Positions 8,201-64,000 of a stretch of 64,000 nt of DNA are shown piece by piece. Both the position numbers and the translations under genes were made by a program. Source of the DNA: Psammoneis japonica. Lineage: Eukaryota. Under the pieces are notes generated by a model. The model saw only the letters and a program-made list of their open reading frames with translations, was not told the DNA's origin and made no database searches. The stretch is from assembly GCA_008632985.1 (NCBI GenBank), contig QPGO01000008.1, forward strand, positions 62,001 through 126,000. Direction: 5' to 3'. Each line of letters starts with the position of its first letter. Position 1 is the stretch's first letter.

Positions 8201-8430
8201 TTCGGCGATGAATCTTTAGATACACTCTTCACTTGTTTCTTTTCTTCGGCACTGCGGGTAGACACCATGTATTTGGAATTGTTCTTTGTTTCAACGCGGA
8301 ATTGTGAACCGTCTAGGACCTGCAACCCTACAAACATGGCCATACTGTCGTCATTGTCTTGCTGCGAGGGGATCTCTTCGGACGGCAACTCCACAGAGAC
8401 GCTTTCCCATGGTAACGATGGCGCCGACAT
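5239..8430 (-). CDS. DDX24: DEAD-box RNA helicase, DDX24/MAK5 type; spliced
   Basis: [65 protein letters not shown] and HRAGRTA across four ORF segments. Confidence 0.88.
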
Positions 8431-8559
8431 GGTGAAAAGCTTTCGGGATGTCGGCTACATACGGCATCGGATATCGCGATGAACCGATGAAAGAAGAAAG
8501 GAACGTTGACAACATCACTTTGAATGGCATGGATGCGATGGACGATGGATGGACGTGAA

Positions 8560-11500: not shown

Positions 11501-11600
11501 CGACAGCGGAGAGGTTCAGCTGCTCATGTGCACTGATGACTGCTGGGCACAAAAAAATTGCCAATTCTGGCACTCGATGAAGAAGCCACTAGGTCAGAAG
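8560..11600. repeat. TpA- and CpG-depleted degenerate block, probably transposon-derived; family not identified; boundaries approximate
   Basis: Only about half a dozen TA dinucleotides by eye in about 3 kb. TG/CA excess. Overlapping, almost Tyr-free, Cys/His-rich ORFs in all frames. Confidence 0.6.
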
Positions 11601-12628: not shown

Positions 12629-12899
12629 GAACACTGGGCACGAGCGCAAAAAAATCGACGAAACTTTTAGCTGGTAGATAGTCTGTCATTAACGCTCTCT
12701 AACAGCTGCATCCCAATTATAAAAATCTCGACGGCTTTTGCCAAAATCACCATTTGCTTCCTCTGGGAAGTGGTGCCTGATTCGAGACAGAATAGAAAGC
12801 TTTCTTACAATGTTCGAAGCAAGTCTGTCTGTCATTTTCCATTCAAGGCTGGATTTCGATGCTTGTTTCAAGGTGACAGACGCCAGTGTTTCTTTTTTA

Positions 12900-19222: not shown

Positions 19223-19981
19223 CGTCTGATCAACGGGTAAAACAGTGACTGTGTGACCGGTGGGTGTCAATGTGCAGAAAAACGGGTGAAGCTGCAAATT
19301 GTGAGAGGGTGCTGGAGACACGGCAAAACGCAAATCGCGATCGAAATGTCTGTGACCCAGTTTACGACTACTAGGTATCAACAGCACGTAAGACCTCACG
19401 TAGACAAACACATAAGCCCGTTGTCATAACATGACATATATGCCCCACCGCAGGAAAATATTTAGAAAAGATGTCATGTCATATGACTGGCATGCGACTC
19501 CAAGGATGACTCGATGAAAGGGGCTTATCTCGAAGGCCATAAAATGCCAAAAAAATCCCGCTATCCGGTACCCTACTATACTCTCTGTTCTCTAGCTAGA
19601 GAGTAGAGTAGAGAACCTATCTACGAGTGTGCTATAGATCACTCCCAAGTTGGGAGGTGAAGCTAGATGCTAGCCATTACAGTAAAGAGGTACTTCTCTA
19701 GTAGCTAGAGTATCTCACCAAGCTACCATGCTACCGGCACCATGGATTTAGTTTATTCTACACTGTAGAGCAGATAGATTAAACACACGAGAATGGCTGT
19801 GGTCTGTCCCCCAAATTTCGAATTTAACATTACATAGAAACACACCACAACGCGTGACGCGGCATATAGTTGATTCAAATACGTATCAAAGCGCTTTCGA
19901 GAACTAGAGATGTCTTAAGCGGCGCTTACAAAATTTCTTCTCTAGAGAGAGAAGTCACTATGCAGATTGCGCTGACTATCT

Positions 19982-22900: not shown

Positions 22901-23304
22901 AGGGAGTCGCTTTGGGGGTGTCTCCTCCATTTCCTGGGGCTGGTGTTGGAGTTAGTGAATCATCCGAGAATGGAGCTCCAGACTGGCAACCTGGTAGATC
23001 CCTGCATTTCGCTCTTGTGCAGAGGTCTTTTGTATTTCCGGTTGGATTCTGAAAACATCCAGCAACGTAGCATTTCGTGCAGTGGGAACATTCTTCTTGA
23101 TCCATTGCTGTTTGGTGTCGGACGCAGTCGTTGATCATCTGTCCGTAATCAACAGGCCCACCTTAAAATAACACACGTGAACAACAGATTACGATATCAG
23201 AATGATGTAAGGTCAATTACAATAAAAAAGCCTTAGCGACAGTGCTAACCTTGAGTGACGGAAATCAGAGCAAGTAATGCGAGTGGTCCTAGAGCGTTCA
23301 TCAT
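19982..23304 (-). CDS. Secreted peptidase-M64-like metalloprotease, paralog 2; spliced
   Basis: Signal exon MMNALGPLALLALISVTQ; Cys modules; Pro/Thr stalk; KINLVFVGSGF; HELGHSLFELTDEY. Confidence 0.85.
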
Positions 23305-32645: not shown

Positions 32646-32816
32646 AGCGATTAAACTATGCTAACGACAGCGGCTTGTCTTTGTCGATCTTGAAAGAATG
32701 AGACAAGCCGGTGATCGAGGAAAACAACAACCAACCTTTACAGCACGTTCAACGTGCGCACGTGGTTCAACAGGAAATGGGTCTTCTCCCCGATTCTGGC
32801 ACTGGATGAGGACAGC
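32646..32816. repeat. 3' terminal direct repeat of the YR element
   Basis: AGCGATTAAACTATG...GAGGACAGC; 4 mismatches to 38741-38911. Confidence 0.92.
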
Positions 32817-32932
32817 GGTTGCCACCGCTTTGCCCATGCGTGCTTCGCATCGGGGATGGACGAGCGCGCTCCTGGAGTGAACGGTGGGTTCAAACCGCTG
32901 GTCGCGCGCTCTCTTCTAAAGTGATGCAAGTG

Positions 32933-34285
32933 TCATGCAATGCATTGTGTGCTTGGAGTGGAGGTGGCTTTGCTGCTGGCGCTGTGAAGGTTTTCTCCCT
33001 GCCCAAAGCTGGACGGCAGGGCCTCCAGTGCCACCCACTGATGTGCAGGCGGTGCAGCAGCTGGCCAAACATGTGTTGGGATTGGGCAGGTGGGCCCATC
33101 TGGAGGGCTGGTGGAGTGTTCTTGCGGGGCAATGGGCACTTCAGCATTGGGGTGGAGCACAAAATTGCCCCCAGCGAGCATGGCTTGTGCAAAACCGCGC
33201 ATGGTGGGTTCGGCTTGGAGGTGCAGGTAGCGCAGCATCTCGTCAGAGCACCACCGGCCTAAGAGACGGATCAGGTCGGTGTCAACATGGGCACACAACA
33301 GTGCCGTTGCGCCTGCTGCATGAAGGCAGCGGGGCGAGACATTGGCCGGTGTAAAACCCAGGTTCTCAGGACCCAGGGCAATGACGGCGGCATGGAGTGC
33401 TGACGTGATGTCGGCAGGGGACACTGCGTGCCACCTGCCATTTTCAAAATGCACCCCCAAAGGGGTGTCGGGGAGCGCTCCACAGGTGCACAGGCAAATG
33501 ACCCGGCGGATGAGGGCCCTGGTCGGGCAAAGGTCTGGATGGCCGGATGGGCCACGCGCGATGACTTCGCCGCGAACGCCACTTTTCTGGGTGGTGAAAG
33601 TGAGGGAGCTGAGTGTGGTGGCGAAGAGGGCAGGGGCCACAGTGGTGAAGGGGTCAAGGTGCACTCCGCCCAAGGCCAAACGCAGATCTGCCAGGCGGAA
33701 CGGAGTGGTGTCGGATGGCGTGGCTGTGCATTCACCCAGGCGAAGCAAAAAGAAAAAAGCCATTGCGATCATGTCCGCGATGGCCTTGGTGCCTGCGCTG
33801 TTGCTGAGGGCGGCGGCATGCAAGATCCAGAGAAGGACGCTGATGGGGACTGGTTTGACACGGTCGGGTGGCGGATCCTGTTTCTTGTAAAAACGGATTT
33901 GGCGGGCAAGACGGAAATCCATGTCGCCCTGGGGTGTGCAACGTGGGTCAGAGGACCCCATTGCAGCAAACATCTGCCCAACCAACCGCAGGGCATCCTC
34001 AGCAGTGTGAGCCCAGATGGGATTGCCTCTTGGGGCGATGACGCCGGTTTGGAGTCGATGGAGGAACACTTGGAGGAAGAGGATGGGATCGTTGGTGTCT
34101 TCGAGAAATGGACTGATGGCCAGTTGGTGGCAGAAATCGATCCAAAGGTTCCAGTGGGCATCGGCGGCAGAGGATCGGGAAGAGGTGACGCCGCATTGCA
34201 CTGCATCCTGCGCAGCACTGAGATCACACAGGAACACAGTGCGGGTGGCGGGGTCCACAGACGCCAAGACTTGCTCTGTGGACAA
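32933..34285 (-). pseudogene. Tyrosine recombinase of the retroelement, mutated
   Basis: AFFFLLRLGECT (expected LRxGEY), FTTQKSG, SPRCLHAAGATAL and LLGRWCSDEMLRYL. Confidence 0.88.
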
Positions 34286-34292
34286 GTGGAGT

Positions 34293-36420
34293 TCAGGTGA
34301 GAAAGGAACACGACGTTAGAGAGGTGTTGCAAGCCGAAGCATTGTCACCAGCACGGTTCCAAATGCCAGGGTGGCAATCATGGAGGCCGATGTGACGGTG
34401 TTGGCGTTGATGGTGCGCTTGAAGCCTGAGGAGTTTTGAAGCTGGTTCAACCATGGTGGCAGATCCCTTGCGTTGCCAGTGCATGGTGCCAAGGTTGTCG
34501 GCACGGTCAAGGTTGGTGCGCTCGCGGATGTCGCAAGTGTCGGAAGCTGCACAGGTGTGGACGACACTGCCGACGAGTTCGAGGTCAGTGTTGGTGATCG
34601 GGCCGTGTGGATTCTCACATGTGGCGAGTGAGTCTGCAACATCCTTGGGGAATTGTGGGCGCCATGCCACAGGGCCTGGGTCACGTTGGATGCGACGTCG
34701 ACCAGAGGAATGGTGCAGCTTGGCGGCTCGTGGGACTGCAGTGGGAGTTGGCACAAGCACCCCGCCGGCTCCGTGGCCGGCAGCGTCGTGACAACCATGA
34801 ACAGTTGGGGGCAGTGGTGCGAGCTCTTGGAAGTGGACGGGGCGTGAATCCAGGGACTGGCAAAGATCACGAAAATCATCCAGTGTGGAATGTACGTTGG
34901 CTGCGAGACGGATGCGTGAGTCCGGTGTGGTGTGGCAGAGTGCCTCCTGCAATTCGGAGAATGGGCCCCGCGAGCCGGGTGTGGCCACCGCGAGTGACCG
35001 CAATTCTCCCAGGAGTTTCTGATGCTCTTGAATGGTGACGCGTTTGCCTGAGCGGGGAAAGTCCTTGTAGAGTGTGTGGTGCAGTCGTGCACGACGGCGT
35101 GGGGTGAGTCGGAGTGTCATCGACAGTGTGTCGATCAACCAACCCAACACCTCTTTCTGTGTCGACCAGGTGGCGTCACCCTTGCAGAGCTTTTTAACTG
35201 ATGCAGGCTCTTTGCGGGCGGCAATGTCGTCCGAATCGGTGGGGTAGAACACGTCGTCGATCGCGTGCAAAAGCACACGATGTGTGTTCCGTCGAGCTGC
35301 GGTGGACCCCTGCACGGCGCCAATGAAGTCATCGATGCATGTGTCGATGCAGGCTAAACGCCGGCGGCGACTCGGATTGAGGTGTGGATCTGGCAACGTT
35401 GGAATCGGCATGGCTGTCGTTGTGGGAGGTGATGTTGGTGGGGGTGCATGGGTGGGTTCGCGACTGGATGCCACTTGCTCCAACGGGTGCGGTGGTGCCG
35501 TCCCGGCGCGTGCCAGCTGCAAGTTGGCTAGATCTGCCACCGTCTCGGTGGCGGCACTGAAGCATGGTGGCAAGTTTGCCCAGCCCATGGGCAACCGCGT
35601 GGGTGTGGCTGCCAGCGGGGGTTCGCCCGGCAAATGTGGGAAAACCACCCCAAGTCGTTGGGCACCATCGGGATTGAGATGCATCCGACAGAAGCCGTCC
35701 GCTAGATCAACCTTCATGAGATGGACGCGACCGTGCGATGGGTTGGCCAGCAAGATGCGGCGCAACAACCGGTCGAGTGTGCGTCCGAACTGCATGGCTT
35801 CCATCAGGGTGTCAGGCTGAGTCACGTCGTTCGTGCCGCAGAATGTGCAGTCGACAATTGGTCGTGGCCGACGTCCACACTGGGGTGCTGCGCCAATGGG
35901 GCTCAGCCGCAATCCGGGCGTTTCCTTCATTTCCTCATGTGGGAGGACCACCCAGAAACCCTTCTCAACGCAATCGGCCATGTCCTCCCGGAGGAATTCG
36001 ATGTGCTCGCAGGCGGACTTGTGTGCCCCCCTGGCCAAACTTGCTTCAAGCTCCTGAGGTGTCCATGGTGCATCTGCAAGGGTGATGGGGACACTGCGGT
36101 GTTTGCAGTTTTGCAGCAGCCTGTGGGCTGGGTGACCACGTGTGCAGTGCAACAGTCCCCAATCCCCTCTGCCACTGCGGCGATGCAACAAGCAACTTGG
36201 TCCTCTAAGGCACAGCAACTTTGTGTCACGCAACATGTGCTCACCTGGTTTGTCAGTCTGCACAGCGTTGGCAATGGCCTGCGCACGTGATGCACTGCGG
36301 TTGTTGCTGTCTGTGAATCTCTCCGCCTGTGGGGGTGGCGGCACTGCCAATGACACCGATGGCAGCTGACATGGCTCTCGGCCCTGAGTCCCCGAACTCG
36401 GGCCATTGCCGATGACCCAT
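34293..36420 (-). pseudogene. Reverse transcriptase / RNase H of the YR element, mutated; 5' boundary approximate
   Basis: RPRPIVDCT, KVDLADGFCR, RLPMGW, CIDDFIG (YxDD changed to CIDD), KEVLGW, HDAAGHGAGG and TNTDLELVG. Confidence 0.88.
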
Positions 36421-38669
36421 TCAGTCTTCCAATGCTCCGTTGCCCATGTGAGGAGGTTCGCTTGGTCGCTCTCCGCGTGGTTGTTGTGATGGTCTGCAAC
36501 ACAACCACAATTGGAATTGCACTGCCCTTTCAAGTGGTGTGGGAGGCACCGTGGGTTTCCTTGCACATCGACCGGCAATGCGACTCCGTTCTGGGTGCAA
36601 CGCCATTTCACCTCACGTGACCCAACATTGGGACAATCGCGGACGGCATTAAAACGTTCGTTGCACTGGGGGTTGCGCACTGGCGTGTTGTCGCCCGGTG
36701 CGCCTGGACGGGGATTTTGTGCAGTGCTGCTCACTGGTTGTGATGCTGAGGGGATCATGGCAGCTGGGGCAGGTGCGTTCCCGGCCACCAATGTGATGGT
36801 CGGGGGCAACGTGCAGCACCAAGAATCGTTCCCCTTCAAGTGTTGCCAACCACCCGGCGTGCATGGAATGGAGCTGCAGCATTGCAGGCCGTCTCCTGCA
36901 GCCGGAACCATGACATGAGCTCCACCTGCACACAGCGCTGGATGTCCACCACTGGCGTTGGGTTCTGCGAGCACTCCACAGCTGAATCCTCGGCGTGGGT
37001 GTCCAGGTCCTCGCGAGAATCTGTGAAGCACCTGACCACAGGGTGACCCATGCCCAGCAGGGTTGCCAGTGCGACGCGTGCACTCTCCATGCAGCATTGG
37101 AGCGATTCGATCGTGGTGGTCACGCGAGCGTCGTCTGGTGTTTCCAGCACCATGGTGTCGGCAAGACTGGGCCGACTGTCACCGCGTGAATTTGGCGGCA
37201 CATGGCAGAACGGTGAGCAATCTGCTGCGCTTGCTCCGGGGTTGTGAGGCTGAATTGATGCGGGTTGACTCCTTGTGCGGGATCATCCCCATTGTCCCCA
37301 GCAAAGTTGAGACTCATCAATTTCGACACCAAACTGACAGTGACTGGGATGCGAAACCGCACTCCCAGGGCGTGGCGTGTCTCGTCCACTGCATTCTGGA
37401 CCTCCGCAATGCACCCCGCCTTGGAAGCCCACACGAGACGTGGCCACACAGGTGGCAGCTGATCCTCAGTGTACACTTGGCAGAGCCGCGTGAGCTTGCA
37501 CACGCCCAGATCGCCGAACGCCTGCACCGGCGTCTTTCCTTGTTCAGCTGCCCACTGGCGAGCCTGCGCGTCAATGCGTGACTGACGTTGCTCGGCAGTG
37601 AGTCCATCGATTGCCCTCACCACTGGTGCAATGTGATGGGGCGGGAGCACCAAATCGTTGCGCCCTGGCAGGTCCAGATTGACCTTCTGGTCGAAGTGCC
37701 GAATGAGCGCCGCATTCGGTGGTTGTGGCAAGACTGGCCACTCCCGTGTCACTGCAGACACGTTGGGGTCCACCGCCGTGGTGGTGCAAGCCACCTTGAG
37801 ACAACCCAACAAAGGGCGCAATGCGCCCACCTTGTTCCCAGCCGTTGCCGCTCCCAGAATTCATGTGAATGCCTGCTTGGGCGGCAACCCCCCGGGAAGA
37901 AGTGTGTCACGCAGGCGAAGGGGACATGCATCACAAATCGCGCGCGCACTTCTGCCGTGTTCACTGCGTTGGGGTCAGCCGGGCCCACCAAACCTTCAGG
38001 GTGTGCCGTGATCTTCGTGGCCATCCCAGCATCGTCCAGGACAAATGCACCAGCGGCGGCGAGGCCCATCTCTTCCGGTGGGTGTGGCACCGCCGTAAAC
38101 TGGTTGGCGACCAGGTCCCCAGCTGGGGCACAGGTGTTTCCATCCCAAGGCTGAGTGGGTCCAATGACGGTGGTCGGGTGGGTGGAGATGCGATGACACA
38201 CTTGAACCGCCCCTGCATCCGGCGCGCCCTGCGTGCGGCAAAGGCGCGCCAACGCCATCGGCACGTTGTGTTCGGACGCCGCAGATGCCCTCTGCTCCAG
38301 GGCTTGTGGGTTGCATCGTGAGGGTCCTTGCACACGGGCAGCAAAATCAATCATGGGCTCAGTGTAGACTCCTTGGTGTGGGTCCTTGTTGTTTGCCGCG
38401 AAGCAATCGTGGCACGTCCTGAGGTTTCCCTGTTGCGGAACCGGGGCTGCGTCGGCTTGCTGCGCTGGTTGGGCAGCTGCCTGTGGCTGTGTGCCCGGCC
38501 CCCCTTGTGGTGCTTGGCACGCGGGTACACCCAGTGGTGGCTGAGCCGGTTGTCCTGCTGGTGGCACAGGGTGCACCGGCGGAGGCGGTACATTCGGCGG
38601 TGGTTGTGGCGGTTGCCCGGGCGGTTGCCCGCCCCCTTGGTTCATGGCGTTTGGTGGCTCGTTGTTCAT
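36421..38669 (-). pseudogene. gag-like ORF of the YR element, frame-broken, with C-terminal Cys/His finger
   Basis: Pro/Gln-rich N-terminus from ATG 38669; segments 37749-38669 and 37120-37830; CLPHHLKGQCNSNCGCVADH near 36500. Confidence 0.65.
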
Positions 38670-38740
38670 GCTACGAACTGCGTCTACTTCTTTCTGCGAT
38701 AGGGCAAAGATGGCGGAGGTATCCTGCGTCGCGGTCTTAT

Positions 38741-38911
38741 AGCGATTAAACTATGCTAACGACAGCGGCTTGTCTTTGTCGATCATGAAAGAATGAGACA
38801 AGCCGGTGATCGAGGAAAACAACAACCAACCTTTACAGCACGTTCAACGTGCGTACGTGGTTCAATAGGTAATGGGTCTTCTCCCCGATTCTGGCACTGG
38901 ATGAGGACAGC
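38741..38911. repeat. 5' terminal direct repeat of the YR element
   Basis: Copy of 32646-32816 that retains three additional TA dinucleotides. Confidence 0.92.
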
Positions 38912-47989: not shown

Positions 47990-49320
47990 CCCGGATGTTA
48001 AAGTGGGGAGAACTGACAACTGCACAAGCAACCATCATCAAAGGCAGCCGCACTCAAGGACAAGGAACAACATGTGAAGCAAAATGCAACATGCAGACAA
48101 GGAGCTTGTGCAGAAACAAAGTGTCCAGCCACACCAGCACCAGTGGAGGAGGCCACAAGAGGAGGCAGAGCAACGCGAGGAAGCAAGAAAAGAGAAGCCG
48201 CCACAGAGGGGACAAGAGCCTGCACAGAGGACAGCGGCATGTGCTGTGCATTGAAGAACCAAGTGGAAGGGGTGAACAGAATGCCCAAAAGGGGAAATTG
48301 TGAGACTCTGTTTTGGGAACTGAGAGCAAGCAGCTGCGAGATGCTTTGCAGCACAACCCAGCAAAAGCTTGTTGCCGCCCCGGCAGGCCAGCCAAGAATC
48401 TCTGTGTGTTGTCCATGACCAAGCAGCAGCACCATGAAAAGTGTTTCAACACCACTTTGGGGTGTGACCCAGTTGTCATTGAGAGCTGTGCCTTGCAAAA
48501 AACTGCTCCAGTGCTTGTCAGCAAATCTCCGAGCATGATGTGCAAAAGTGCCGGAGCTTGCTGAAGATGTCTCTCTGCTGCTGTGCTCTGCTTCTGTCAA
48601 ATGAGAGCACAAGCATGTGCTCCACAACCTCTTTGCAGAGCCAGGCAATTGTCTTTGCAGCTTTGGTGTTTGGCACAGAGCTCCAAGCACAGTGCTTTGC
48701 TGTGGCACCAACAATGTCGTGGGCAAGAGCAGCAGTGTCCACAGCAAAAAGCAGCTCTGCTTGCTGTGTGTTGGAGCAGCAAGCAGCCAGAGCAACAACA
48801 ACAAAAAGAAAAGATGAGAAGAGCAGAAGTTCGCAGGTGTGCAGCATCTGAGGTGCCCAGAAATGATCTCCAGCATGTGCCAGCACAAGACAAGCAGCAG
48901 CAAAAGCAGGGTGAGATGACAAAGGCTTGCTTTGATGAGGATGGCATGGGGGCACAAAGCCAAGAAGCTGCGCAGAGAGAAGCAAGCCAACTTGGTGCAG
49001 TCTTGGCACCAGGTGGTGGCTCAAGAGTGTGCGTCATTGTGCACAGCCACTGCTTGTGAGGCACCAGCCAAGAGCAGCAGCAGCGCTGGCCAGCTCCCAG
49101 GACGCTGCCAGAGCTCAGCCGGCCTCTTGCATTGTCAACTCAGAACACTTGCAAAAGAAGAAACAACAACAGAGAGACAGGAAGAAAGCAACAGCTGACA
49201 ACAGCAATTCTTTCTGCTTGGAATGCCATCACATTTTCTATGTTCACTGTCCCAGTTGCTTGCGTTAGACTGGCGACATTTGTGACACAAGATCCGTCTT
49301 CTCCGTGCGCACTGATGCGG
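47990..49320. repeat. TpA-depleted degenerate block, probably transposon-derived; boundaries approximate
   Basis: No TA seen by eye between about 48002 and 49235; Tyr-free ORFs in all frames. Confidence 0.6.
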
Positions 49321-54299: not shown

Positions 54300-56424
54300 G
54301 CATTTACGCGCGCGCGTGAACGTCACCTCAGCAGTGGCGCGGTGTGAATTACAGATGCTGGAACTTGCTGGGTCATGCATGTCAATCACATCAATCACAT
54401 GCATCATCGTCACATCATGTGCAGGAAAGCAAGGGTTCAGGTTTTGGGATGGGTTCGCGAGATGGGACTGCAGCTTGGTGGAATGGCAGGTGAGCTGGAC
54501 AGTCAGGGGTTTGGTGACCATGAGACTGAGGGCAGTGTGGCGGCGCAGCAGTGCGGCGCGAGGTGAGTGTGAGGCCAAGCCGGGTGTTGATGGGTTCTTC
54601 TGGGCAGCTGCAGCAGCGGGTGAGAGAGAGAGCTCCCCTGAGCACAACAATGACTGGGTTCAGGTGTGTGCAGCATGGCCAGGTGCGTGTTAAAAAGAGG
54701 ACTCGGGTGCTGCCCAGCAGGCTGGGGGGCTGCGCATGTGGGGTGGAGATGGGGGGTCATCTTGGTGTTGTTGGCTGGTTTGCTCTAAAGAGAAGGCCAT
54801 GGGGGGCAAAGCACCCTTCCTGGCACTGCCAAGTGGTCAAGGCAGAGATGCTTGCTTGCCTCACAGAACTTTGTGATTTGCGCGCAAAATTTTTGCTTTG
54901 GGCACTTGCACGTGGTGTGTGGCCTCAGCAAAAGGGCTGAGATTGGGGGCAGGCAAGCAAGGAGCTGGAAGGGGGAGAGGAGATTTGGTGACAGCTGCGC
55001 TGATGGCTGGGCAGTGGTGACCTGGGAGCAAAGCAGTGGAAGAAGAAGCAGGGGTGAGTTCTTCTTGGACACACACCAACATCAGCAGCTTGTTTCATGG
55101 GTGAGTGTGGGTGAGGTTTGCAGGCTCTTGGTGAGTGGCAGAATCTCACATGTGTCAGACAGCAGGCCAATTGTTTGAAGCATGCCAAAGAGAGCATCTC
55201 AGACAGCATTGGAGAGGTCAGTTTTGTGCCCAAGAGAGCAGCGACAGAGGGCACATGGTCATGACCATGTGGAGTGTGGACATCAGATGCACCATTGCAT
55301 GAGGTGCAGAAGATGTTGGGTGGCAGCCTGTGACCATTTCTGTTGTTTCACAAAAAACACCACAGCACATGCCAACCCCACTTCCCCATCTTGCTCTTGT
55401 GCTTGTGCAGTTGGGTCAATGTTCCTGCCTCTTGTTGCTTGTCTCTGCTCCATCTTGTGCCTCCACATGTGCTGAGAGGTTGTGCAGTGGCATCAGCGTT
55501 GCTGGCACAGACACATCAGAGTCCAAGTCATTTGAGCATTTCATGCAATGCTCTAGAGAAGCATCCTTCTTGCACTTGGCAACCTCATCTTTGTCCTCCT
55601 CCTGTGTCCTGTGAGCCCCCTCATCCAAGAATTCTGCAAGCGCATCTTCAAGCTGTGCATCAACATTGTCCTCTGTTGTTTTCTCACTTCTGTTGCTTGC
55701 TTTTCCTTGAGCTCTCTTCCTTTTCTTTCCCAACTTGCTGTGCTTTGCCTTTTTGACAATGTCGTCTTTTGTCTTTGTCTTCTTCCTCACCACAAGAACC
55801 CAAGTGACTTGTGTGCAGCAGTGCTTGTGATCCAGGGCAACACATCATTGGGACAAGGCATTGACCATGTCATGAATGGACTCCATTGCACCCTTCGTGA
55901 AGAAGCCAGTTGTTCTGCACTTTTGCAACATTTTCAAGGTGCGCACTGTCAGTTGGCAAATCTTGATGGCAGCAGAGCCAACGCAAAGCTCCCAGAACTT
56001 CTTGACATCTTCCTTGAACTTGTCAATGTCAGCATTCTCTGACATGTTGATGGATCTTAACCAAGGTGGGAGCTCTGCAAATGTGCCAAAAATCCCCTTG
56101 ATGCTTTTTCTTCTAACTCTGTTTTCACCTCATCTGACTCATCTTTGGATGCTTCCCACAAGGCACTGAACAACAAGCTGGAATTCTGCATCATTCTGAA
56201 ACAATCATTGCCATCAAATGATCCACCATGGAATGGGTTGTGCTGGGCACTGACAGGTGATTTGCTGATGATGGATTCCAGCATGCTTTCAAACTTCCCT
56301 TGGCCATGTTTCAGGTGTGCACCAATGTTGGAAAGCAGACCCTTGAGTGTGCAGGGTGCACTGTCTTGTTGCGATTGCTCTTGAGTTGAGCATGAAGTCA
56401 TCCAGCAGACTCACGCGCATCTCT
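54300..56424 (-). mobile_element. Degenerate RAG1/Transib/Chapaev-like DNA transposon, 3' part; left boundary approximate
   Basis: FHGGSFDGNDCFRMM (56057-56401) and GFFTKGAMESIHDMVN (55845-56045) resemble the GN and GxxSExxxES motifs of this transposase group. TA and CG are depleted. Confidence 0.6.
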
Positions 56425-56429
56425 GTGTG

Positions 56430-56705
56430 TGACAGAAAATGAAGGCAAATGGCAAGAATTCAAACAATGACTCCTCACTGCTGTCTAAACAGCAGATGAG
56501 TCTCCGCTCAGAGACCGTCACAGGAGCCGAAAGACGTGCAAGTCGGTGCAATCGGGCTACTGTTGTCATTCTTGTGAGCCTTGTGGCTCGAAAGCAAACT
56601 ACATCGCGCGTGAACGCGCGGAACTGAAGCACACAAAACTGTGCACGGTAAACTAAACAGCGCGCGACACTTCGTGCGCACCTGAATCCTGTTCAAATCC
56701 TGTCA
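56430..56705 (-). repeat. 3' LTR
   Basis: TGACAG...CTGTCA; 14 transitions versus the 5' LTR and no indels. Confidence 0.95.
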
Positions 56706-59700
56706 CTCCCCAGTTTGCTTGAGGAGCCACAGAAACAGATTCGACTTCGGATGGAATGAAGTTCCAGAACATGAGGGGGCGGAGAAGGTCCCAGATTTGG
56801 GAGCAACCCCAATGCTTGCTGAGAATGTCAGCAGGGTTGCGGGAGCCTTCGATGAAGTGGAACTCAAGGCAACCAGAGGCAATTGCCTCACGCACACGGT
56901 GGAACGACAGTGCGGTGTGTCGCTTGTGTAACTTGGAGTGCGGGATGGTGGCACTGTCTACAACCGACTTGTTGTCACCGAACATGTAACTAACGTTACG
57001 GATCGGGACGCCAAGGCAGCGCAGGGTGATGCGCAGGTCGACAATCTGCTCAACACAAGTCCTTGCGGCAACAAATTCAGACCCGTAGGTCGCAGTCTCC
57101 ACGGTGGCTTGTTTCTTAGAGAACCAATCAGCCGGGAATTTGTTGAGGAAGTGGAGCATTCCCATGACAGAGCGTCCGGTGAGCATGCAATGGCACAAGT
57201 TTGCATCGACGTAGTGGGTGGCAGTGACGAACTTGCCAAGGGGCGGTGGAGCGTCCTTCGGGATCATCTCTTCTGCTTCACCATACACGGAATGCATCCA
57301 TTCACAGGCCGGAGCAGGGAGATCCGAACAGTCGGGCTCTTCCGTACGAACGCGGAGAGCACCGTGTCGCATCTTGGAGAGGCACCCACAGACGCATTTG
57401 GCACGATCCAAGTGGCCTTGACGGGGCGCAGCTCGGAAGCTAGAGAGTGACATGACAGCCGTGGCAATGTCAATTCGACCAAGGGACACTGCCCATTGGA
57501 GTGAACCAACAAGAGACTGGAACTTGTGAATGCCATCGGGTCCCAGCAGTTCGGAAGTGTCCAGTTCGGGGAGGTCACCCTTCTCTAGAGGTGACAGGGC
57601 GTTGGTGGCAGGTTTCTCCCCAAACAGTCAGGCACAGCTGTCGACCATGCGCTCGATGTACTTGCACGGAGACAGGCACAAGGTTCCGTCGGGTTCCCGG
57701 GAAAAGTCGCAACCCAGATGGAACTCAATGGGTCCCGTGCCCTTGAGCTTGAACTTGTGCTTTTCCGTGAGAGTGTCGACGAAAGATTGAGGGTCCTTCA
57801 TGGCAATGGCGAGGTCATCCACATAAACGGCAATGCACTCACAGTGGTCGCCGTTCCTGCGCATCCAAATGTCGGGTTCGGCGCGGCAGGGGAAGAAGCC
57901 TTCAGCTCGCAGGCAGTCGGCGAAGCGCTCGTGCCAGCGGAGACCGGAGCTGCGCAGTCCATGCAGTGCCTTGTGGATGACAAGGATGTGTCCTTCGAGT
58001 TTGCCGAACTCGGGTCCAGCTGCAATGTAAAGCTTCTCCTTGGTGGTGGCTTCAAGGCAGGCATTGCCAATGTCGGTGGCCCATGTCTCCAACTCGTTGA
58101 GTTCGGCCAGGAAAATCATCAGCCGAAGGCCACGGAGGGAGACCACTCCGGAGTGGACACTGTCGACAGGTACGTCCATGAGGTGCCCGTCGGCTACGAG
58201 TCATGCCTTGTGGCGACCGTCGTGTTTCACATCGCACACCAGGTGCACTCGGATCTTCTTGTGTCCCGCAGGAGGAGTGGAAGACTTGAAGGGCCCGCAG
58301 TCATGGAAGACTTCGTATTCGTCGAGTTGGTCCATCTCGAGATTGGTTGCGTCTCCCCACTTGCGGTTGCCGTTGCGTTCGTCCAGTGACATGGCGTGTT
58401 TGTAGTTCCGGGGAACTTCGCATCCATGCTTGTAGCGGGGTGCAGTGCGGAAGGAGCGAAGCTTGGCTTGGTTGGCCATGCGAAATAGCTTCTTTTGGCG
58501 CCTCGCGATGGTGCGGAACCGCTTCCAGCCATCCGTGTCGAGGAGTCCGTTCTCTCGTGCATAGATGGCACAGGTGACGGGGTTGTCCTTGGCGATGATG
58601 GCAAGAGGCTCGGACGTGATCTCCCCACTTTCCCATTCAAGCATGATGTTGTAGCTGGAGCCTTTCCAGGTTGGGTCGTGAGGCTTCAGAGGTCCTTCGT
58701 GTGACACGATGCGTCGAAATTTCCAAACAGTGGTGTCTTCGTCTTCTTGCTCAATGTGATTCATGATGTCATTGCAGGCAAGGACTTCCTCGTATTCGTC
58801 ATTGTTGACAGAGCAGACGAACTTGGTGAGCTCGGGATTGCCGTTCACTTTCCATTCGTGGTCTTCGACGGCCTTGACGATGCGAGCTCTGTGGCGTTGT
58901 CCGTCCTCTTGTGGCTGCATGAGGAAGGTGCGTCCAATGATGTCTTGCGGATCGAAAACTGGCATCTTGGGTGTCCTGATCTCCCCATCAGGAGAGTCGA
59001 CGGGGTTGTCGTCATGGCGAGATTTGATGATGGGTTCAGGTGGCTCCCCATCAGGAGGATCAAGACGCAGGTTTCGAACGGCAGGATCGGGGGCAGCGGA
59101 GCGGACGTTGGACCGGTGGAGGATCTTCTGAGTCTCGTCAGATAGAATCTTGAAGGTCATCTGGTGGCCGACGTGCTCAGCAATGCCAACGAAGCGTCCA
59201 CGCAACTCACGGGATTCAGACGGCCAATCGGAGTCATCGAGGTGGAAGCACACGGGTTCCCACCAGTGAAAGCGAAGCAATGGGCTGATGTCCGGGGTGG
59301 AGCCAGTGAGAGTCTCGAGGGGCGTGCGCCAGTGGAGACGTGGGGACACTGTGTGGTTGAGGATGAAGCACACGCACATGAGCGCCAGCAGCCATGTGTG
59401 GGCAGGCGAACCAAAACGATCCATGACAGTGTTCGCCATGCGCTTCACGGTCTGGCATCGACGCTCGGCAAAGTTTTGGTGTTGCTGGTGAGGCTCACTT
59501 TGCCAGCTAGAGATGAAGAGGGCGCGCAGGATCCCGAGCACTTTGTTGCTGATCTCAACTTGAGCACGGTCGCCAATGAGTTTGGATGGGGCACCACGTG
59601 CACGGATCTGATCCTCGAGTGTGTTGACAAACTCTTTGTCCGTCTTAGCACCGCAGACGTCAGTGACGGTGGACTCGGTGCCAACAAACAGTTGGGCGCT

Positions 59701-62322
59701 GGTGCAACCAGAGTCGACGGCCGGGGTGTCGGCACAAACGGTGTCAGTGGCGATGGGCTCGTTGCGGCGGTGCACATTAAGGGCGGGGTTGGGTGATTTG
59801 CAGGCCTTGCGAAGGTGTGTGCCGGCGGGCATGCGGGCGCACTGCGTGGTGCAGTCAAAAGTGCGACGGACTGTGTCGGCAGGCAGGAAGCCAAAGTGAG
59901 GCCGAAGAGACTCGAAGGGGGGGTCCTTGGGCTGCACAGTGCACTCCGGAGGTGGAACGTCATCGCCCTGGGGGCCAATCGCATGCAGATGACACTCGTA
60001 GAACACGTCGTCGTTCGGAATGAGGTGATCATCGAGGGCGGACGCGTGATCGGCAGACAAGGAAGCGGACAAGATGGTCTCGTTGACAACGACACGATGA
60101 CGGCAGTTGCCGCACTCGTCAAACAGGTTGGCAGTGGGATCGTCCTGCAGGTCAGAGATCGCGTCGCACCACTGGTCGTCGTCAGTGACAGAGTGATCGA
60201 GGACGGAAGGGTCCCATGTGTCATCACCGGTGAGGATGACATGGGGCAGGGTGTCCCATTCGGCGTCAGTGCAAGGTCGCATGGCAACACAAGGCAGGCC
60301 AGCCTTGATGTCAATGGGGATGACACAGCCATCAGGAGTGGCAATGCGTTGCAAGCCGTTGGGCACCTTGACAGAGCGATCGTTGACATCCTGTTTGCAC
60401 CATTCGAGCTGGCCGCAGGAGTGGATGGTCTTGCCCTTTCCCGTGCATGCGCACTGATGGAGGATGGCGATGACGGGACCACGCTGGGTCTCAACAATGG
60501 CGCCAGCGGTGACAATGGGGATGTCCACCAATTGATGATCGTCAATGCCCTGAACGTCGACTTGGTGAGAGGTGCGTGCAATGACGCGAACGTCGTTGCC
60601 AGCAATGCCGCCGTTGGCCCCACGATTGACTAGAGCGCCAGTGCGTGTGGATCGATGAGCAGAGGCAGAGCAAATGACATTGTGGTTGTCAACGCGGCGG
60701 CAAGTGCGGCCGTTAAGTTCCACGTTATCTGCAGAAGCTGGCGGGGTAGAGGAAGCGGCGGATGGCCCCGGTCGACTGGCATTGGGGGCTTGGTTAGGAG
60801 ACAACAGACGTTGCAGATCACCGGGTGGCAGTGGCTTGCGCTTGGTGAGGTGCGCCAGGATGGGATTGTCCGAAGTGGCGTCCACATGTGGGGCGGAGTC
60901 ACCAGAGTCAGCAGGAGTCGTGTTGGACAAGTTGACATCACCGTCACTCCCAAGGCGTTGGTCGTGAAGGTTGGCCGCAACAGACTCATGGCAGTTGCTG
61001 GCTCGCGGGTTGCGGGGAGGTGGACGAGAATGCTCAAGGATGATCGCCTTGGAGGAATCGGGCAACGAATCCCAGAGCCGTTGGTGGTCGGGAGGGAGAC
61101 GTCTCCATTGGACACCGGTGAGGCTGGGACCGCGGGTGTGGGCAGCATTGGCTTGAAGGACGTCAACGTCACTGTCAATGTCGTAGAACACATCGTCGGA
61201 CGGTTCCTCGGAGTAGACGTCGTGTGCGCACATGGCGCGTCGGGGAGCTCGAGGTGTCGTCTTGGGTTGAAACGTGCTGTCGCACTGAGCTGCTGCGGAG
61301 AGGAGCAAGCCACAGTGTTGATCGCATGTGAGGCTCTTGCCACTCTGCGTGCGATGCTGATCAGCTTGGTTCTTGACAGCACGGAGTTCCTCGACAGGGT
61401 GCACGGCATTCTCGAGCATGACGCGCTTCTGTCCTTCAGAGAAGTGGTCACTGGCCGGGATGAGTGCCTCGTACTTGCGCAACTGATCTTGCCAATGAAG
61501 GATGAACCCGTGGGTCGGACCTTTCCAAGTGCCATCACCAAGACGCGCGGTGGTGAGGTGCGTGAGCAGGGTGGAGGACTCGACAGATGCGCGGGTGGAG
61601 GCAAGCGCGCACTCAGACAAGGAGCGGCAGACGGTCTGTGCGTCAGAAGACTCCACATTTTCGCGAATGAGAGCCTTGCCCTTGTCGGTGAGAAGGATGC
61701 GTTCGAAGACGGCGAACATGCACTTTTGCTGTTCAGCAAAGAGCAGTTTGTCTTCGGGGCTGGTTGGTTTGTACGACGAGTCTAGAATGCACTCGACGTC
61801 TTGGGCACGGGCTTGTGCCACAAGTGAGGTGTGCCAAGTGTGCCACTGCTTGTCGGATTTGAGAGCCGTGAAAGCGGTGGGATCACGCTTGATGCCTCGC
61901 TTGAAGTCCCGCACCGGGTCGCGTGCCTTGGTCGGGTTGGTGACATGTGGAGGTGCAAGGGGTGAGCTGCCGATGGACACAGAAGACATGCAGTCGGGGC
62001 TGAGGCGGCAGGCAAGGAGCTCGTCATGTGTGAACAAAGAGGAGTCGTTGGCAACGTCAAGACCTTTGTGTGCTTTGACAATGCACAGACTGACTGGTGC
62101 TGCTAACATGTTCTCACAACCACGGGGCAAAGGGATTGCATCAGTGCCGTTGTCGCACTCAAGCGAGTCGATTTGGGACGGCATGAACGTGAACAGTTCC
62201 TGACATGAGTCCGTGCCGTCTTGGGCCAAAGCCAAACGAAGAGGACTCCCAGCACCTTGGGCAAGCACGGTTCCAACCACGTGCTTGAAACCATCGGTTT
62301 GTTGCTGACGAGTGAGAACCAT
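56706..62322 (-). pseudogene. gag-pol polyprotein in a single frame with two TGA stops (58201, 57628)
   Basis: LVNRGANGG, IATDT..GDRAQ..NFAERR (integrase), DVKHDGRHKA, DIGNACLEA, AVYVDDL, ETATYGSEF, FGDNKS and NPADILSK. Confidence 0.92.
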
Positions 62323-63250
62323 GGCAGACAAAAATGGTGTCAGGACAATCAATTCTGGTTGGGAAGCGAAGGCAGACTCGAAACTTGGGTGAGAGTGGAC
62401 TTGACTTGAAATGGACTTGACTTGAAATCTTGAACTATCTTAAAATCAGAAGTCGCCGGGCTTTGTTATCCCGTTCGTTGTCAAGTGCTAAACTTCCCAT
62501 CCGGTCCGCCAGAGTTGTGCCGGCACGTCCGAACCCGCAGCCAGCGGCGCTTTGGGTTGCTTGCGAGCGGAGCAGCGGGTTGCAAACCCCTGCAGGCAAG
62601 CTGACCAGAGGTGGACAAGACCCCCGAACCGTTCTTATTTTATGTCGGTTGGATTTCCCGATTGGGCTGGCCAGTTGACGCAGGCGCCAGGCACTGTGGA
62701 CGAACGAACAAACGCGGGAAAGCACCCTCGCCCCAACGCAGGCTGCAATCACGGCTGCTTGCTCTCACAGTCATCCTCGTGGACCTAGTAGAACTGTAGA
62801 GCACCAGCAGTCCGGGGTAGATCAGGTGCAATGGACTCGGTGTGCTTGTAGAGTGGTGGCAAAACCGCAGTCCGAAGAGTGGGTACAGGTTCTTGGCCGT
62901 GAAGACATGTATATATATATATGTCTTCAGCGACGAAGATCCTTGAATATGTAGGGTTCTTGACCGTTAACCGATGAACAGGTATATCAAGGGATGAGGA
63001 TCAAGGATAGGCTTGGATATGACCGTTGAATGTATGTCTTCAGCGATCAAAGGTAGTATAATCAATCCAGATATCCAGCGGTAAGGAGACTTGACGGTGA
63101 CGTTAACTTCCTGCCGATGCCCTGGTATTGAATGCGCGTAGACTTGCCGATGTATGTAGAATATATACGGAGGTCCACGTAGAATTAAAAATAGCGTCGT
63201 TGGTAAATCAACGACGACGATGGCGGTTGCTCAATGGGTTGACAATGAGC

Positions 63251-63263
63251 AAGACTGCTAATC
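63251..63263 (-). promoter_or_regulatory. Putative primer-binding site complementary to a tRNA-Ser(GCU) anticodon arm
   Basis: GATTAGCAGTC abuts the 5' LTR on the element strand. Its complement GACTGCTAATC is the anticodon-arm sequence of eukaryotic tRNA-Ser(GCU). There is no TGG start. Confidence 0.55.
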
Positions 63264-63539
63264 TGACAGAAAATGAAGGCAAATGGCAAGAATTCAAACA
63301 ATAACTCCTTACTGCTGTCTAAATAGCAGATGAGTCTCCGCTCAGAGACCGTTACAGGAGCCGAAAGACGTGTGAGTCGGTATAATCGGGCTACTGTTAT
63401 TATTCTTGTGAGCCTTGTGGCTCGAAAGCAAACTACATCGCGCGTGAACGCGCGGAACTAAAGCACACAAAACTGTGCACGGTAAACTAAACAGCGCGCG
63501 ATACTTCGCGCGCACCTAAATCCTGTTCAAATCCTGTCA
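63264..63539 (-). repeat. 5' LTR
   Basis: TGACAG...CTGTCA; retains 11 TA dinucleotides that are absent from the 3' LTR. Confidence 0.95.
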
Positions 63540-63544
63540 GTGTG

Positions 63545-64000
63545 CTTGCAACAGCAATGCTTTGGCTTCCAAATTTGGCCGCACTTGATTTTGAGTGGCT
63601 CACAACAGCTCCCAAGCTTTGGGTCATTTCTCCTTGGTGTTCTCAAGATTCTTGCTGAGAGCTTGTTCTTGCTGCTTCAACTCAGCTGCGTGATTCAACT
63701 GGAGCTCTCTTGCTTCAACAAGCCTTTGGTGTTGAATTGAATTTCCCTGATCAATCTCCTGAACGTCTGCCACAAGGTTCTCCCATGCTTTTTTTGTTGT
63801 CCCAAGAATGATGTGCAGTGATGCAAGAAGCACCCTGTCAAAATCAACCAGAGTTGGAGGTCGGTTGATCACTGATCCATTTGTCTCAGCAGCTTGCTTC
63901 TGCTTCTTCTTGGTGTTGTGCTTTTGGATGTTGTTGAGTTGTTGCTTTGCCTCAGCTGCCATTTGCAGCTTCATTCCCAAATTCATGTGTCCTTCAATCT
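63545..64000 (-). mobile_element. Upstream part of the RAG1/Transib/Chapaev-like transposase, continuing beyond the window
   Basis: RVLLASLHIILG (LHxxLG motif) followed by a coiled-coil stretch. Same strand as the 55845-56401 fragments. No TA seen. Confidence 0.6.

Follow-up and report, generated by a model that had tools for sequence, protein, structure and literature searches.

The window, by which we mean the whole stretch of 64,000 nucleotides analysed here, contains two host genes whose closest relatives are diatom genes, and its TA-free or TA-poor DNA belongs either to one of two LTR elements or to one of five discrete tracts.

A copia-type element and its surroundings

The element under study is a Ty1/copia-type LTR retrotransposon on the minus strand, bounded by a 5-bp duplication (Table 1). 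Its LTRs are direct repeats with TG...CA ends and 95% identity, and the presence of GTGTG on both sides implies that a single insertion gave rise to the whole. The polyprotein, of approximately 1928 amino acids, carries the RVT_2 family at residues 1414-1603 and has 770 homologs, PF07727 being carried by 119 of the 120 that were listed; with one of these, P0001, it shares 58% identity over 1865 columns (tblastn, positions 62322-56761). No Pfam family was found at E <= 0.001 in the 1412-aa N-terminal ORF, in which an integrase-like stretch is seen by eye only, and the precomputed Pfam lists of the polyprotein homologs give PF07727 alone, with neither rve nor protease. The GC content of the element interior is 56-60%.

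The family to which the element belongs is very abundant: contig depth over the element is 55,000-381,000, as against 60-64 over the left flank, and 13,649 contigs of contig set X1 align to the family. The depth of the left flank indicates that it is single copy. The element is inserted into a TA-free, CpG-poor tract, which continues beyond its right end. TA contributes 0.13% of the dinucleotides in the tracts of this kind against 4.4% in host-like DNA, and the sum of TA, CG, CA and TG is 24.2% in fully converted tracts against 24.4% in host-like DNA. The boundaries of the TA-poor stretches lie within about 100-300 bp, and the host genes are spared. The five tracts are mutually dissimilar by blastn and tblastx and have no clear terminal repeats; their ORFs (10 among the 26 proteins submitted) gave no Pfam family, and one Atlas look-up returned only sub-threshold, coiled-coil-like matches (best 0.77).

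Table 1. Features of the retrotransposon, of its LTR differences and of the surrounding DNA, in window coordinates
Feature	Position	Strand	Remarks
Retrotransposon	56430-63539	-	Ty1/copia-type; 276-bp LTRs and RVT_2
Left target-site duplication, GTGTG, 5 bp	56425-56429	.	Read from sequence
Right target-site duplication, GTGTG, 5 bp	63540-63544	.	Same pentamer past the right LTR
3' LTR (element orientation), 276 bp	56430-56705	-	Hypermutated, 5 TA left; LTR alignment
5' LTR (element orientation), 276 bp	63264-63539	-	Spared, 16 TA; LTR alignment
Leader, 5' LTR to polyprotein ATG	62323-63263	-	
Copia-type polyprotein frame, two in-frame TGA	56653-62322	-	ATG 62322-62320, stop TAG 56655-56653; translation
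RVT_2 (copia-type reverse transcriptase) segment	57628-58200	-	Pfam PF07727, E = 1.3e-21
In-frame TGA	58201-58203	-	Arg in at least 80% of 45 homologs at this column; CGA>TGA, CpG decay
Second in-frame TGA	57628-57630	-	G at 57630 (+) in 95% of family depth, i.e. sense CGA
TG in 56430 copy, TA in 63264 copy	56469, 56548, 56565, 56626, 56684		
CA in 56430 copy, TA in 63264 copy	56476, 56490, 56519, 56549, 56567, 56668		
Double site, CA versus TG	56539-56540, 63373-63374		CA in 56430 copy, TG in 63264 copy
Single site, TG versus CG	56675, 63509		TG in 56430 copy, CG in 63264 copy
Left flank	54351-56429	.	TA-free, CpG-poor, CA/TG-rich tract; dinucleotide counts
Right flank	63545-64000	.	Same TA-free, CpG-poor tract continued; no TA from 63518 to window end
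Second LTR element, unrelated	32646-38911	-	171-bp LTRs 32646-32816 and 38741-38911; TA-poor interior

Differences between the two LTRs

An LTR pair is an internal control, since both copies have spent the same time in the same genome from an identical start. We aligned the LTR at 56430-56705 with that at 63264-63539 using MAFFT and compared the two directly, letter by letter. A preliminary description of this DNA had counted 14 mismatches in 276 bp, all of them transitions and with no indels, and had sorted them into eleven sites at which TA stands against TG or CA, one TG-versus-CA double site and one CG/TG site. Both the count (14 of 14 transitions in 276 columns) and the sorting are reproduced, with five TG and six CA sites among the eleven, and the four example contexts quoted there are all present. 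Its assignment of TA to the 5' LTR holds in the orientation of the element, the polyprotein of which is on the minus strand, and fails in the order of the window, where it is the right-hand copy that is rich in TA.

The pair does read out, at 11 of its 14 sites, the TA-versus-TG/CA spectrum that had been claimed for it; with the CA/TG double site included the TA-linked share becomes 13 of 14, and only one or two of the differences are unrelated to TA. The probability that at least 11 of 14 transitions would fall by chance in the 32 of 276 positions occupied by TA in the TA-rich LTR is 1.3e-8, and under the reverse null, for which 48 of 276 positions are the C of CA or the G of TG, it is 9.5e-7. 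That all 11 should fall in the same copy (11:0) has a two-sided p of 0.001. Transitions dominate ordinary spectra and TA is under-represented in many genomes, as it is in the host-like DNA of the window (observed/expected 0.4-0.8), which would lend some colour to an explanation by ordinary neutral divergence, by GC-biased gene conversion or by codon or dinucleotide selection. We nevertheless hold this to be extremely improbable: the first of the two probabilities above speaks against it, and all 11 of the AT>GC changes lie inside the 32 TpA positions, with none at any other A/T position, which speaks against GC-biased gene conversion. Neither LTR codes for protein, the two started out identical when the element inserted, and codon-usage selection cannot account for the fate of the conserved tyrosines described below. 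The all-transition spectrum is by itself weak evidence, because the one comparable spectrum in print, for another organism, has a Ts/Tv of 7 (Mettrop et al., bioRxiv 10.64898/2026.01.13.699255).

In the hit LTR the relative loss, expressed as the negative log of the fraction kept, is 1.16-1.22 for TpA against 0.05-0.10 for CpG, so that, dinucleotide for dinucleotide, TpA loss outpaces CpG decay in the same LTR by some 12-24 times, a range based on only one or two CpG events. About 70% of the TpA (11/16 or 12/17) has been removed from this 3' LTR.

The two LTRs of an element are identical at insertion through the strand-transfer mechanism of reverse transcription, and the differences between them therefore arose after integration. 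Both strands were hit, as had been proposed, for the five TG and the six CA products stand together in the 56430 copy. Clustered transitions in retroelements also recall the action of ADAR and APOBEC. ADAR acts on RNA and APOBEC on single-stranded cDNA, in both cases before integration, and editing at that stage would leave identical LTRs and a single-strand bias, whereas the LTRs here differ at 14 sites, a single LTR holds both TG and CA products, and the C>T/G>A changes of APOBEC are absent. The exclusion of RNA editing and of single-strand cDNA editing in the preliminary description is thus upheld. That ADAR favours an A with U on its 5' side is cited in the same preprint (10.64898/2026.01.13.699255).

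The earlier expectation that LTR dating would overestimate the age of the insertion is also borne out: the divergence observed is K = 0.053 against 0.004-0.007, an inflation of the LTR-divergence age of about 7- to 14-fold, which matters for the annotation of such genomes.

Direction of the change in the family and in the polyprotein

The opposite direction would require that a RIP-like CpA deamination (CA/TG>TA) struck the 5' LTR and the leader, TG and CA being ancestral, and the preliminary description had named this as the reading on which its own would fall. Between 62751 and 63500 TpA/ApT is 0.8-1.25 and (CpA+TpG)/(ApC+GpT) about 1.0, values that the thresholds of the classical RIP indices would flag; the same values are nonetheless shared by several 1-kb segments of host-like DNA, for example 19001-20000 and 22001-23000.

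For comparison with the family we used summed contig depth, which is not a copy count, at the 40 of 371 variant rows that were listed. TA is present in the majority of the family depth at all three of the listed LTR sites of the TA-versus-TG/CA type (63% at 56548, 95% at 56626 and 84% at 56684). The 63264 LTR agrees with the family majority at these three sites and at the fourth listed differing site, 56675, where CG is found in 98% of the family depth and in the 63264 LTR, and TG in the 56430 LTR. At two further dinucleotides all three states are met with: positions 56468-9 read TG in the 56430 LTR, TA in the 63264 LTR and CA in one X3 contig, while positions 56475-6 read CA, TA and, in the same X3 contig, TG. 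Neither CA>TA nor TG>TA can yield TA, TG and CA together at a single dinucleotide. These observations give a direct polarity to five of the 11 LTR sites; the other six, which lie outside the 40 of 371 rows listed, would by analogy share the TA-ancestral direction.

Four listed rows (56992, 57284, 57346 and 61472) have TA here and TG or CA in most of the family depth, as the RIP-like direction would have it. Two of them are conserved Tyr codons, at which TA is therefore ancestral. By majority rule alone all four would read as TG/CA>TA in this copy, and the remaining two may have changed in either direction. The CpG-type differences from the family, 11 of the listed rows, imply that divergence from the family is not wholly TpA-driven.

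The polyprotein offers a second view of the direction through columns at which at least 80% of 45 homologous polyproteins agree. Of the 39 conserved Tyr columns, 11 still have Tyr in this copy, while 19 carry Cys (TGY), 5 carry His (CAY) and 4 carry Phe, such that 24 of the 28 changed columns read TGY or CAY, and about 70% of the conserved Tyr codons have been lost (24/35, the four Phe columns being left out). Among the remaining conserved columns 628 of 676 are unchanged, as against 11 of 39 for Tyr (Fisher p = 2e-21). A change in the reverse direction, to Tyr or to a stop, was seen at none of the 79 conserved His, Cys, Gln and Trp columns. There is no premature TAA or TAG in the polyprotein frame, and both of the internal stops are TGA derived from CGA. 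The composition follows the same pattern: Tyr stands at 0.9% compared with 2.9-4.5% in the homologs (minimum 2.86% among the 120 listed), Cys at 3.4% compared with 0.5-1.9% (maximum 1.87% among the 120 listed), and His at 4.4% compared with 2.6-4.6%. None of the 120 copia homologs listed, a selection that favours high-scoring proteins, is a hypermutated relative from another host, Tyr being at least 2.86% in all of them.

The TA majority at three LTR sites, the sites with three states and the replacement of conserved Tyr by Cys and His establish that the change ran from TA to TG and CA, and a RIP-like CA>TA change is very improbable.

Other copies of the family have been hit independently of this one. 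At the conserved-Tyr residues 323 and 1719 the codon is TAY here and TGY in 100% and 55%, respectively, of the depth elsewhere; at residue 1808 it is TGC here, and approximately 40% of the depth alters both letters, giving CAC if the two alterations lie on the same contigs. The excess of Cys over His among the converted codons (19:5, p = 0.007) hints at a bias by strand or context; a skew of this type is absent from the LTR (TG 5, CA 6) and from the listed family rows.

Some of the Tyr loss in the interior may be older than the insertion, having been inherited from a mutated source copy, a possibility raised by the second LTR element of the window, the interior of which is nearly TA-free and yet the LTRs of which differ at only four sites. 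Two of these four mismatches are CA in the 3' LTR against TA in the 5' LTR, the other two being transversions; the polarity is that of the first element, but at two sites only. Its 460-aa ORF, which by eye we take to resemble tyrosine recombinases, has 3463 relatives, and no Pfam family was found in it or in three of the relatives. Tyr is at 0.43% in this element, and none of the 55 homologs listed, likewise a selection that favours high-scoring proteins, falls below 1.32%. With only one or two conserved Tyr columns, too few for the purpose, the second element was dropped as an independent replicate of the polarity, and its composition is the argument that stands.

Patchiness and the proposed process

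The change is patchy. Converted and kept Tyr codons fall into 9 runs where 16.1 are expected (permutation p = 0.005), and a 340-bp patch at 58315-58653 holds five consecutive unconverted Tyr codons. Hardly any change has reached the 5' LTR or the leader's first ~360 bp, TA density in the leader being normal (8-9 per 100 bp) at 62900-63263.

It might be supposed that the process is real and the asymmetry of the LTRs secondary, either because both LTRs were hit and some 640 bp at the 5' end were later overwritten by ectopic gene conversion with a pristine family member as donor, or because two copies were fused in assembly. A family of this size offers many donors and makes mis-assembly conceivable, and none of the contigs listed spans the whole element. 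The matching 5-bp duplications and TA-free flanks at both ends tell against such an event, as does the patch at 58315-58653, since spared patches of this size evidently occur inside the element without gene conversion. Moreover, two minority states are common to both LTRs, A at 56645 (G making up 79% of the depth there) and C at 56670 (T making up 42%), a combination that a random donor would fit in about 12% of cases (0.21 x 0.58). The second element, with its two sites, has the same polarity. We therefore consider a secondary origin of the asymmetry unlikely.

Sparing of the 5' end through transcription coupling was also considered and is unsupported, as the leader should be transcribed too; patchy, tract-wise action explains the 5' sparing with fewer assumptions.

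The reading that we favour, and consider very probable, is that a Ty1/copia-type element in a diatom-lineage genome has undergone patchy, post-integration conversion of TpA to TpG and CpA at the DNA level within an older TA-free insertion tract. The element would have entered the tract on the minus strand and, after integration, A:T>G:C changes would have arisen on either strand where an A follows a T (5'-TA-3'). Local patches would be affected, two identical sequences 6.8 kb apart being hit independently, and inactivation would proceed by missense, mainly from Tyr to Cys or His. The process cannot make new in-frame stops, and long ORFs thus remain open. The spectrum, its direction, the action on both strands, the timing after integration, the patchiness and the independence of the copies are shown by the data above. 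As to the chemistry, a deamination of adenine to hypoxanthine in the TpA context, by a DNA-acting deaminase that defends the genome and is directed to DNA that is silenced or foreign, is a tentative suggestion with a little less than an even chance of being right. A deaminase defence of this kind has likewise been proposed for the chlorarachniophyte Bigelowiella natans.

The TpA-only signature is already in print, in one 2026 preprint on B. natans, which describes hypermutation at TpA in the integrated DNA of giant viruses and virophages (10.64898/2026.01.13.699255). According to that source, mutations in two hypermutable viral regions consist nearly entirely of A>G/T>C, all such changes falling on TpA, at a per-generation rate about 1000-fold above background and in some lines only; an ADAT2-like deaminase is proposed as the enzyme, although this is unproven (10.64898/2026.01.13.699255). 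As far as the preprint describes them, the two cases agree in that TpA alone is hit, giving TpG or CpA by strand, in that discrete regions of integrated or foreign DNA are affected, and in the end product, clusters depleted in TpA and enriched in CpA and TpG. A single-copy target is hit there, the NCLDV region, as it is here, where the flank has a depth of about 60; RT and DDE Pfam families are, moreover, enriched among the TpA-depleted coding sequences of B. natans (10.64898/2026.01.13.699255). They differ in the host, in the target, since the element here is an LTR retrotransposon and the main text of the preprint never mentions LTR, retrotransposons or retrotransposition, copia, tyrosine or CpG, and in the evidence, which is evolutionary here (an LTR pair and Tyr codons) and a measured rate there. 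A further difference is that in the present case one LTR of an identical pair has been spared and that CpG decay runs alongside in old tracts. What the present work adds is a diatom-lineage host, an LTR retrotransposon as the target, and the escape of one LTR from a pair that began identical; no other TpA-directed hypermutation, nor any in diatoms, was found in the literature searched, subscription journals and preprint supplements lying outside that search.

With ascomycete RIP the process shares dinucleotide-specific transitions at the DNA level, on both strands, in the post-integration decay of mobile elements, together with skewed TA, CA and TG frequencies and an inflated apparent age. It differs in running from TA to CA and TG, in deleting the TAA and TAG stops that RIP makes, and in increasing GC where RIP gives AT-rich DNA. 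It differs further in the full conversion of a single-copy flank and in the unequal treatment of identical LTRs, and repeat pairing is consequently not evident as a trigger.

It is conceivable, though on balance rather doubtful, that diatoms too possess a TpA-specific defence by DNA adenine deamination, a RIP in reverse, guided by position or chromatin and not by homology, and sparing the promoter-bearing 5' LTR and leader; guidance by homology is unlikely given that identical LTRs were hit 11:0 and a single-copy flank was fully converted. If so, a TpA deamination system would either be old or have arisen repeatedly across the SAR supergroup, and the asymmetry of LTR pairs would offer a genome-wide handle on targeting.

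The process, so far reported for one rhizarian alga in one preprint, is now seen in the diatom lineage too. Diatoms are of major ecological importance and genetic tools exist for them, so that a comparative search for the enzyme becomes feasible. RIP indices point the wrong way for a TpA>TpG/CpA process, and existing tools miss it. An intact ORF is no evidence of activity in such elements, because the process destroys TAA and TAG and creates no stops, and the drift from Tyr to Cys and His may weaken the detection of their proteins by profile or homology.

Structure of the Copia element and differences between its LTRs

The Copia element is delimited by gapless direct repeats of 276 bp each, 95% identical (repeat search and MAFFT), which start with TG, end with CA and are directly flanked on their outer sides by the pentamer GTGTG. 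Because the coding frame lies on the minus strand, copy B, to the right in window order, is the 5' LTR and copy A the 3' LTR. A search with the 1412-aa ORF yielded 770 relatives at E <= 0.001; identity reaches 62-63% in the best of those listed, and PF07727 is present in 119 of the 120 listed (the best 120 of 770). The polyprotein frame contains two in-frame TGA stops and continues for about 35 codons beyond 56761, where the alignment to homologs ends, and terminates within the 3' LTR (56653-56705).

Features of the window discussed in the text
Feature	Position	Strand	Evidence or remark
LTR copy A (3' LTR in element orientation)	56430-56705	-	repeat search, MAFFT, direct comparison
LTR copy B (5' LTR in element orientation)	63264-63539	-	repeat search, MAFFT, direct comparison
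Copia polyprotein frame	ATG 62322 to TAG 56653	-	translation
RVT_2 domain (PF07727) of the Copia element	57628-58200	-	Pfam, E = 1.3e-21
Five TA-free tracts	8722-11589, 12899-15624, 48000-49238, 54351-56429, 63540-64000		dinucleotide scan
Second, unrelated LTR element	32646-38911	-	171-bp LTRs

Compared position by position, the LTRs differ by 14 mismatches, 14/14 of them transitions. At 11 sites copy B reads TA and copy A either TG (5 sites) or CA (6 sites), giving TA counts of 5 in copy A and 16 in copy B; there is also a site at 56539-40 (CA in copy A, TG in copy B) and one at 56675 (T, as TG, in copy A; C, as CG, in copy B). MAFFT and direct comparison thus agree with the preliminary description, made from the sequence alone, in the number and kind of mismatches, the lack of indels, the TG-versus-CA and CG/TG sites and the 11 sites with TA in the 5' LTR, this last being correct in element orientation, although in window order the copy with more TA lies to the right. 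The concentration on TA far exceeds chance: the probability of at least 11/14 differences falling on TA is 1.3e-8 when copy B receives transitions randomly and 9.5e-7 with the null reversed, and the 11:0 split of changed sites between the copies has p = 0.001.

Both LTRs of one insertion are identical at integration, owing to the strand-transfer mechanism of reverse transcription, and the differences between copies A and B are therefore changes of genomic DNA after integration. Since TG and CA are interleaved in copy A, both strands were struck, which excludes editing of RNA or single-stranded cDNA, against which the preliminary description had already argued. GC-biased gene conversion was rejected: 11/11 AT>GC changes lie within the 32 TpA positions and 0 at the remaining A/T. 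In the same 276 bp, CpG loss is 1/20 (or 2/21) and the remaining sites show 0 changes, the per-dinucleotide loss being 1.16-1.22 for TpA versus 0.05-0.10 for CpG. The 14 sites give a K of 0.053 and the 1-2 non-TA sites alone one of 0.004-0.007; LTR dating thus comes out 7- to 14-fold too high, and the earlier warning that it would give too great an age holds.

Direction of change in the family and in the coding frame

Four coded runs, all from a single sample of one study, supplied the Logan contigs mapped onto 55900-63263 at 85% likeness; variant classes and site shares come from 40 of 371 variant rows. Contig depth is 60-64 in the flank and sums to 55,000-381,000 in bins of the element, a sum that does not equal copy number; this excess and the number of contigs (13,649 from run X1) indicate a very abundant family. 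At the three TA-type LTR sites among these rows, the TA-giving letter holds 63% (56548), 95% (56626) and 84% (56684) of the depth, and the CG state holds 98% at 56675, the majority state being that of copy B at 4/4. One X3 contig (loose-end consensus) adds a third state at two further sites: CA at 56468-9, where copy A has TG and copy B TA, and TG at 56475-6, where copy A has CA and copy B TA. Three states imply a TA ancestor or, less parsimoniously, a CG ancestor, which copy B contradicts. The preliminary description had left the direction to the family consensus, with ancestral TG/CA indicating RIP-like CA>TA change; TA proves ancestral at the 5/11 LTR sites polarised directly (3 by majority, 2 by three states), every one TA>TG/CA in copy A, and the rest lie outside the 40 rows.

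The 40 rows comprise 11 with TA in other copies and TG/CA in this one (9 with a share >0.5), 4 of the opposite kind, 11 with CA/TG here and CG in others, 4 (2 sites) at TG-versus-CA double sites, 7 other transitions and 3 transversions. Two of the four opposite rows lie at aa 323 and aa 1719, which are conserved as Tyr; Tyr is kept here and other copies read Cys codons. The codon for aa 1808 is TGC in this copy; about 40% of the depth shows changes in both letters, giving CAC if they are on the same contigs. Such differing products at one ancestral TA indicate that copies were struck independently, which argues for action on integrated copies rather than solely inheritance from one mutated master.

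For the interior, the read-through polyprotein (stops as X) was aligned to the 45 relatives that reach 1750 aa or more, conserved columns being those with one residue common to at least 80% of the 45. Tyr is the sole residue whose codons necessarily contain TA, so that its loss fixes the direction of the process: TA>TG and TA>CA. The 39 conserved Tyr columns hold Tyr 11, Cys (TGY) 19, His (CAY) 5 and Phe 4 times, against 628 residues kept in the 676 columns of all other classes (Fisher p = 2e-21); in the reverse test, 0 of 79 conserved His/Cys/Gln/Trp columns (a subset of the 676) became Tyr or stop. Tyr makes up 0.9% of the polyprotein versus 2.86-4.52% among the 120 listed relatives, and Cys 3.4% versus 0.47-1.87%. 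The converted share of Tyr codons, 24/35 (69%), equals the TA share missing from copy A, 11/16 (69%). The Cys:His skew of the converted codons (56803-61560; p = 0.007 versus 1:1) suggests that strand or neighbouring base matters; no comparable skew is present in the LTR.

Changes of this kind destroy TAA/TAG or convert TAA to TGA and cannot create in-frame stops, so that the 1412-aa ORF outlasts heavy mutation and the TA-free tracts hold long ORFs on both strands. Both internal stops are CGA>TGA, one at a conserved Arg column, the other CGA in 95% of family depth. The TA>TG/CA process may have removed the TAA/TAG stop with which the polyprotein originally ended. The earlier observation is confirmed and its interpretation supported: TpA>TpG/CpA hypermutation of the element after integration is very probably the best explanation, and we infer, tentatively, that DNA adenine deamination could be its chemistry.

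Unequal fate of the two LTRs

Along the element, Tyr codons of either state, converted or not, fall into clusters (9 runs versus 16.1 expected; permutation p = 0.005), and five unconverted ones stand in succession at 58315-58653. The interior is TA-poor (0.71%) and CpG-normal (7.3%), and the 5' LTR with positions 62900-63263 of the leader retains 7.5% TA. Most simply, the process would work on local stretches, from a few hundred bases up to a few kilobases long, and would have missed the 5' 640 bp. Since identical LTRs 6.8 kb apart fared differently and depth marks the fully converted flank as single-copy, the process does not seem to be triggered by homology or repeat pairing. It might systematically spare the 5' end, which bears the promoter; polarity between 5' and 3' LTR is the same in the second element, at 2 sites only. 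That the 5' end was instead overwritten by ectopic conversion from a pristine copy, or is an assembly chimera, is improbable: the target duplications are identical on both sides, the left and right flanks, within the one tract that received the element, are both TA-free, and two minority states (56645 and 56670) are common to both LTRs.

The process elsewhere in the window and its host

The dinucleotide scan divides the window into contrasting patches: host-like DNA has 4.4% TA and 5.5% CG, and the five tracts 0.13% TA, 1.15% CG (CpG o/e about 0.1-0.3) and 22.9% CA+TG versus 14.6%. The four dinucleotides sum to 24.2% in the tracts and 24.4% in host-like DNA, as expected if TA and CG both became CA/TG. 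One run of 2404 bp is without TA, and the edges are sharp (about 100-300 bp). Compared within the window, the tracts show no mutual similarity, and they have neither a Pfam family nor clear terminal repeats; they probably represent old insertions in which conversion is complete.

The second element has a CpG-normal interior with 0.32% TA, and its LTRs show 4 differences, 2 with CA (3' LTR) versus TA (5' LTR) and 2 transversions. Its 460-aa ORF (32933-34315) has 3463 relatives and no Pfam family, and 4/9 conserved Arg columns are altered by CpG-type transitions; by eye, its C-terminus may resemble the tyrosine recombinases of DIRS-like elements.

The organism-named relatives of an RCL1-type ORF (928-2085) are all diatoms among the 120 listed (55-62% identity); those of a DDX24/MAK5-type helicase ORF (7441-8454) include named diatoms at 32-44% identity, with one plant (Oxalis) among the top matches and the remaining plants ranking lower. 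The best named relatives of these host genes, chiefly diatom, place the host in the diatom lineage. Our literature search found the TpA hypermutation signature solely in a 2026 preprint on Bigelowiella natans (10.64898/2026.01.13.699255), whose main text describes the same kind of process: 230/231 mutations in two integrated viral regions of mutation-accumulation lines are A>G/T>C, all at TpA, 324 TpA-depleted CDS are enriched in reverse-transcriptase and DDE domains, 124 clusters show TpA depletion and CpA+TpG enrichment, and an ADAT2-like deaminase is put forward as the cause. LTRs, retrotransposons, tyrosine and CpG are absent from that main text; relative to it, what is new here is a diatom as host, an LTR retrotransposon as target that brings its own internal control to the read-out, a Tyr>Cys/His outcome that keeps ORFs open, CpG decay alongside, and the unequal treatment of two identical LTRs.

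GC-rich (62-66%) tandem repeats with 30/45-nt and 156-nt periods occupy 17980-19010, within a 639-aa minus-strand ORF with no Pfam family. A tandem array of diverged paralogs at 20300-47300 (spacing about 2.5-4.4 kb) carries long minus-strand ORFs that match Peptidase_M64 weakly (E = 1e-9 to 1e-11); the array is TA-normal, and a repeated host gene family thus escapes the process.
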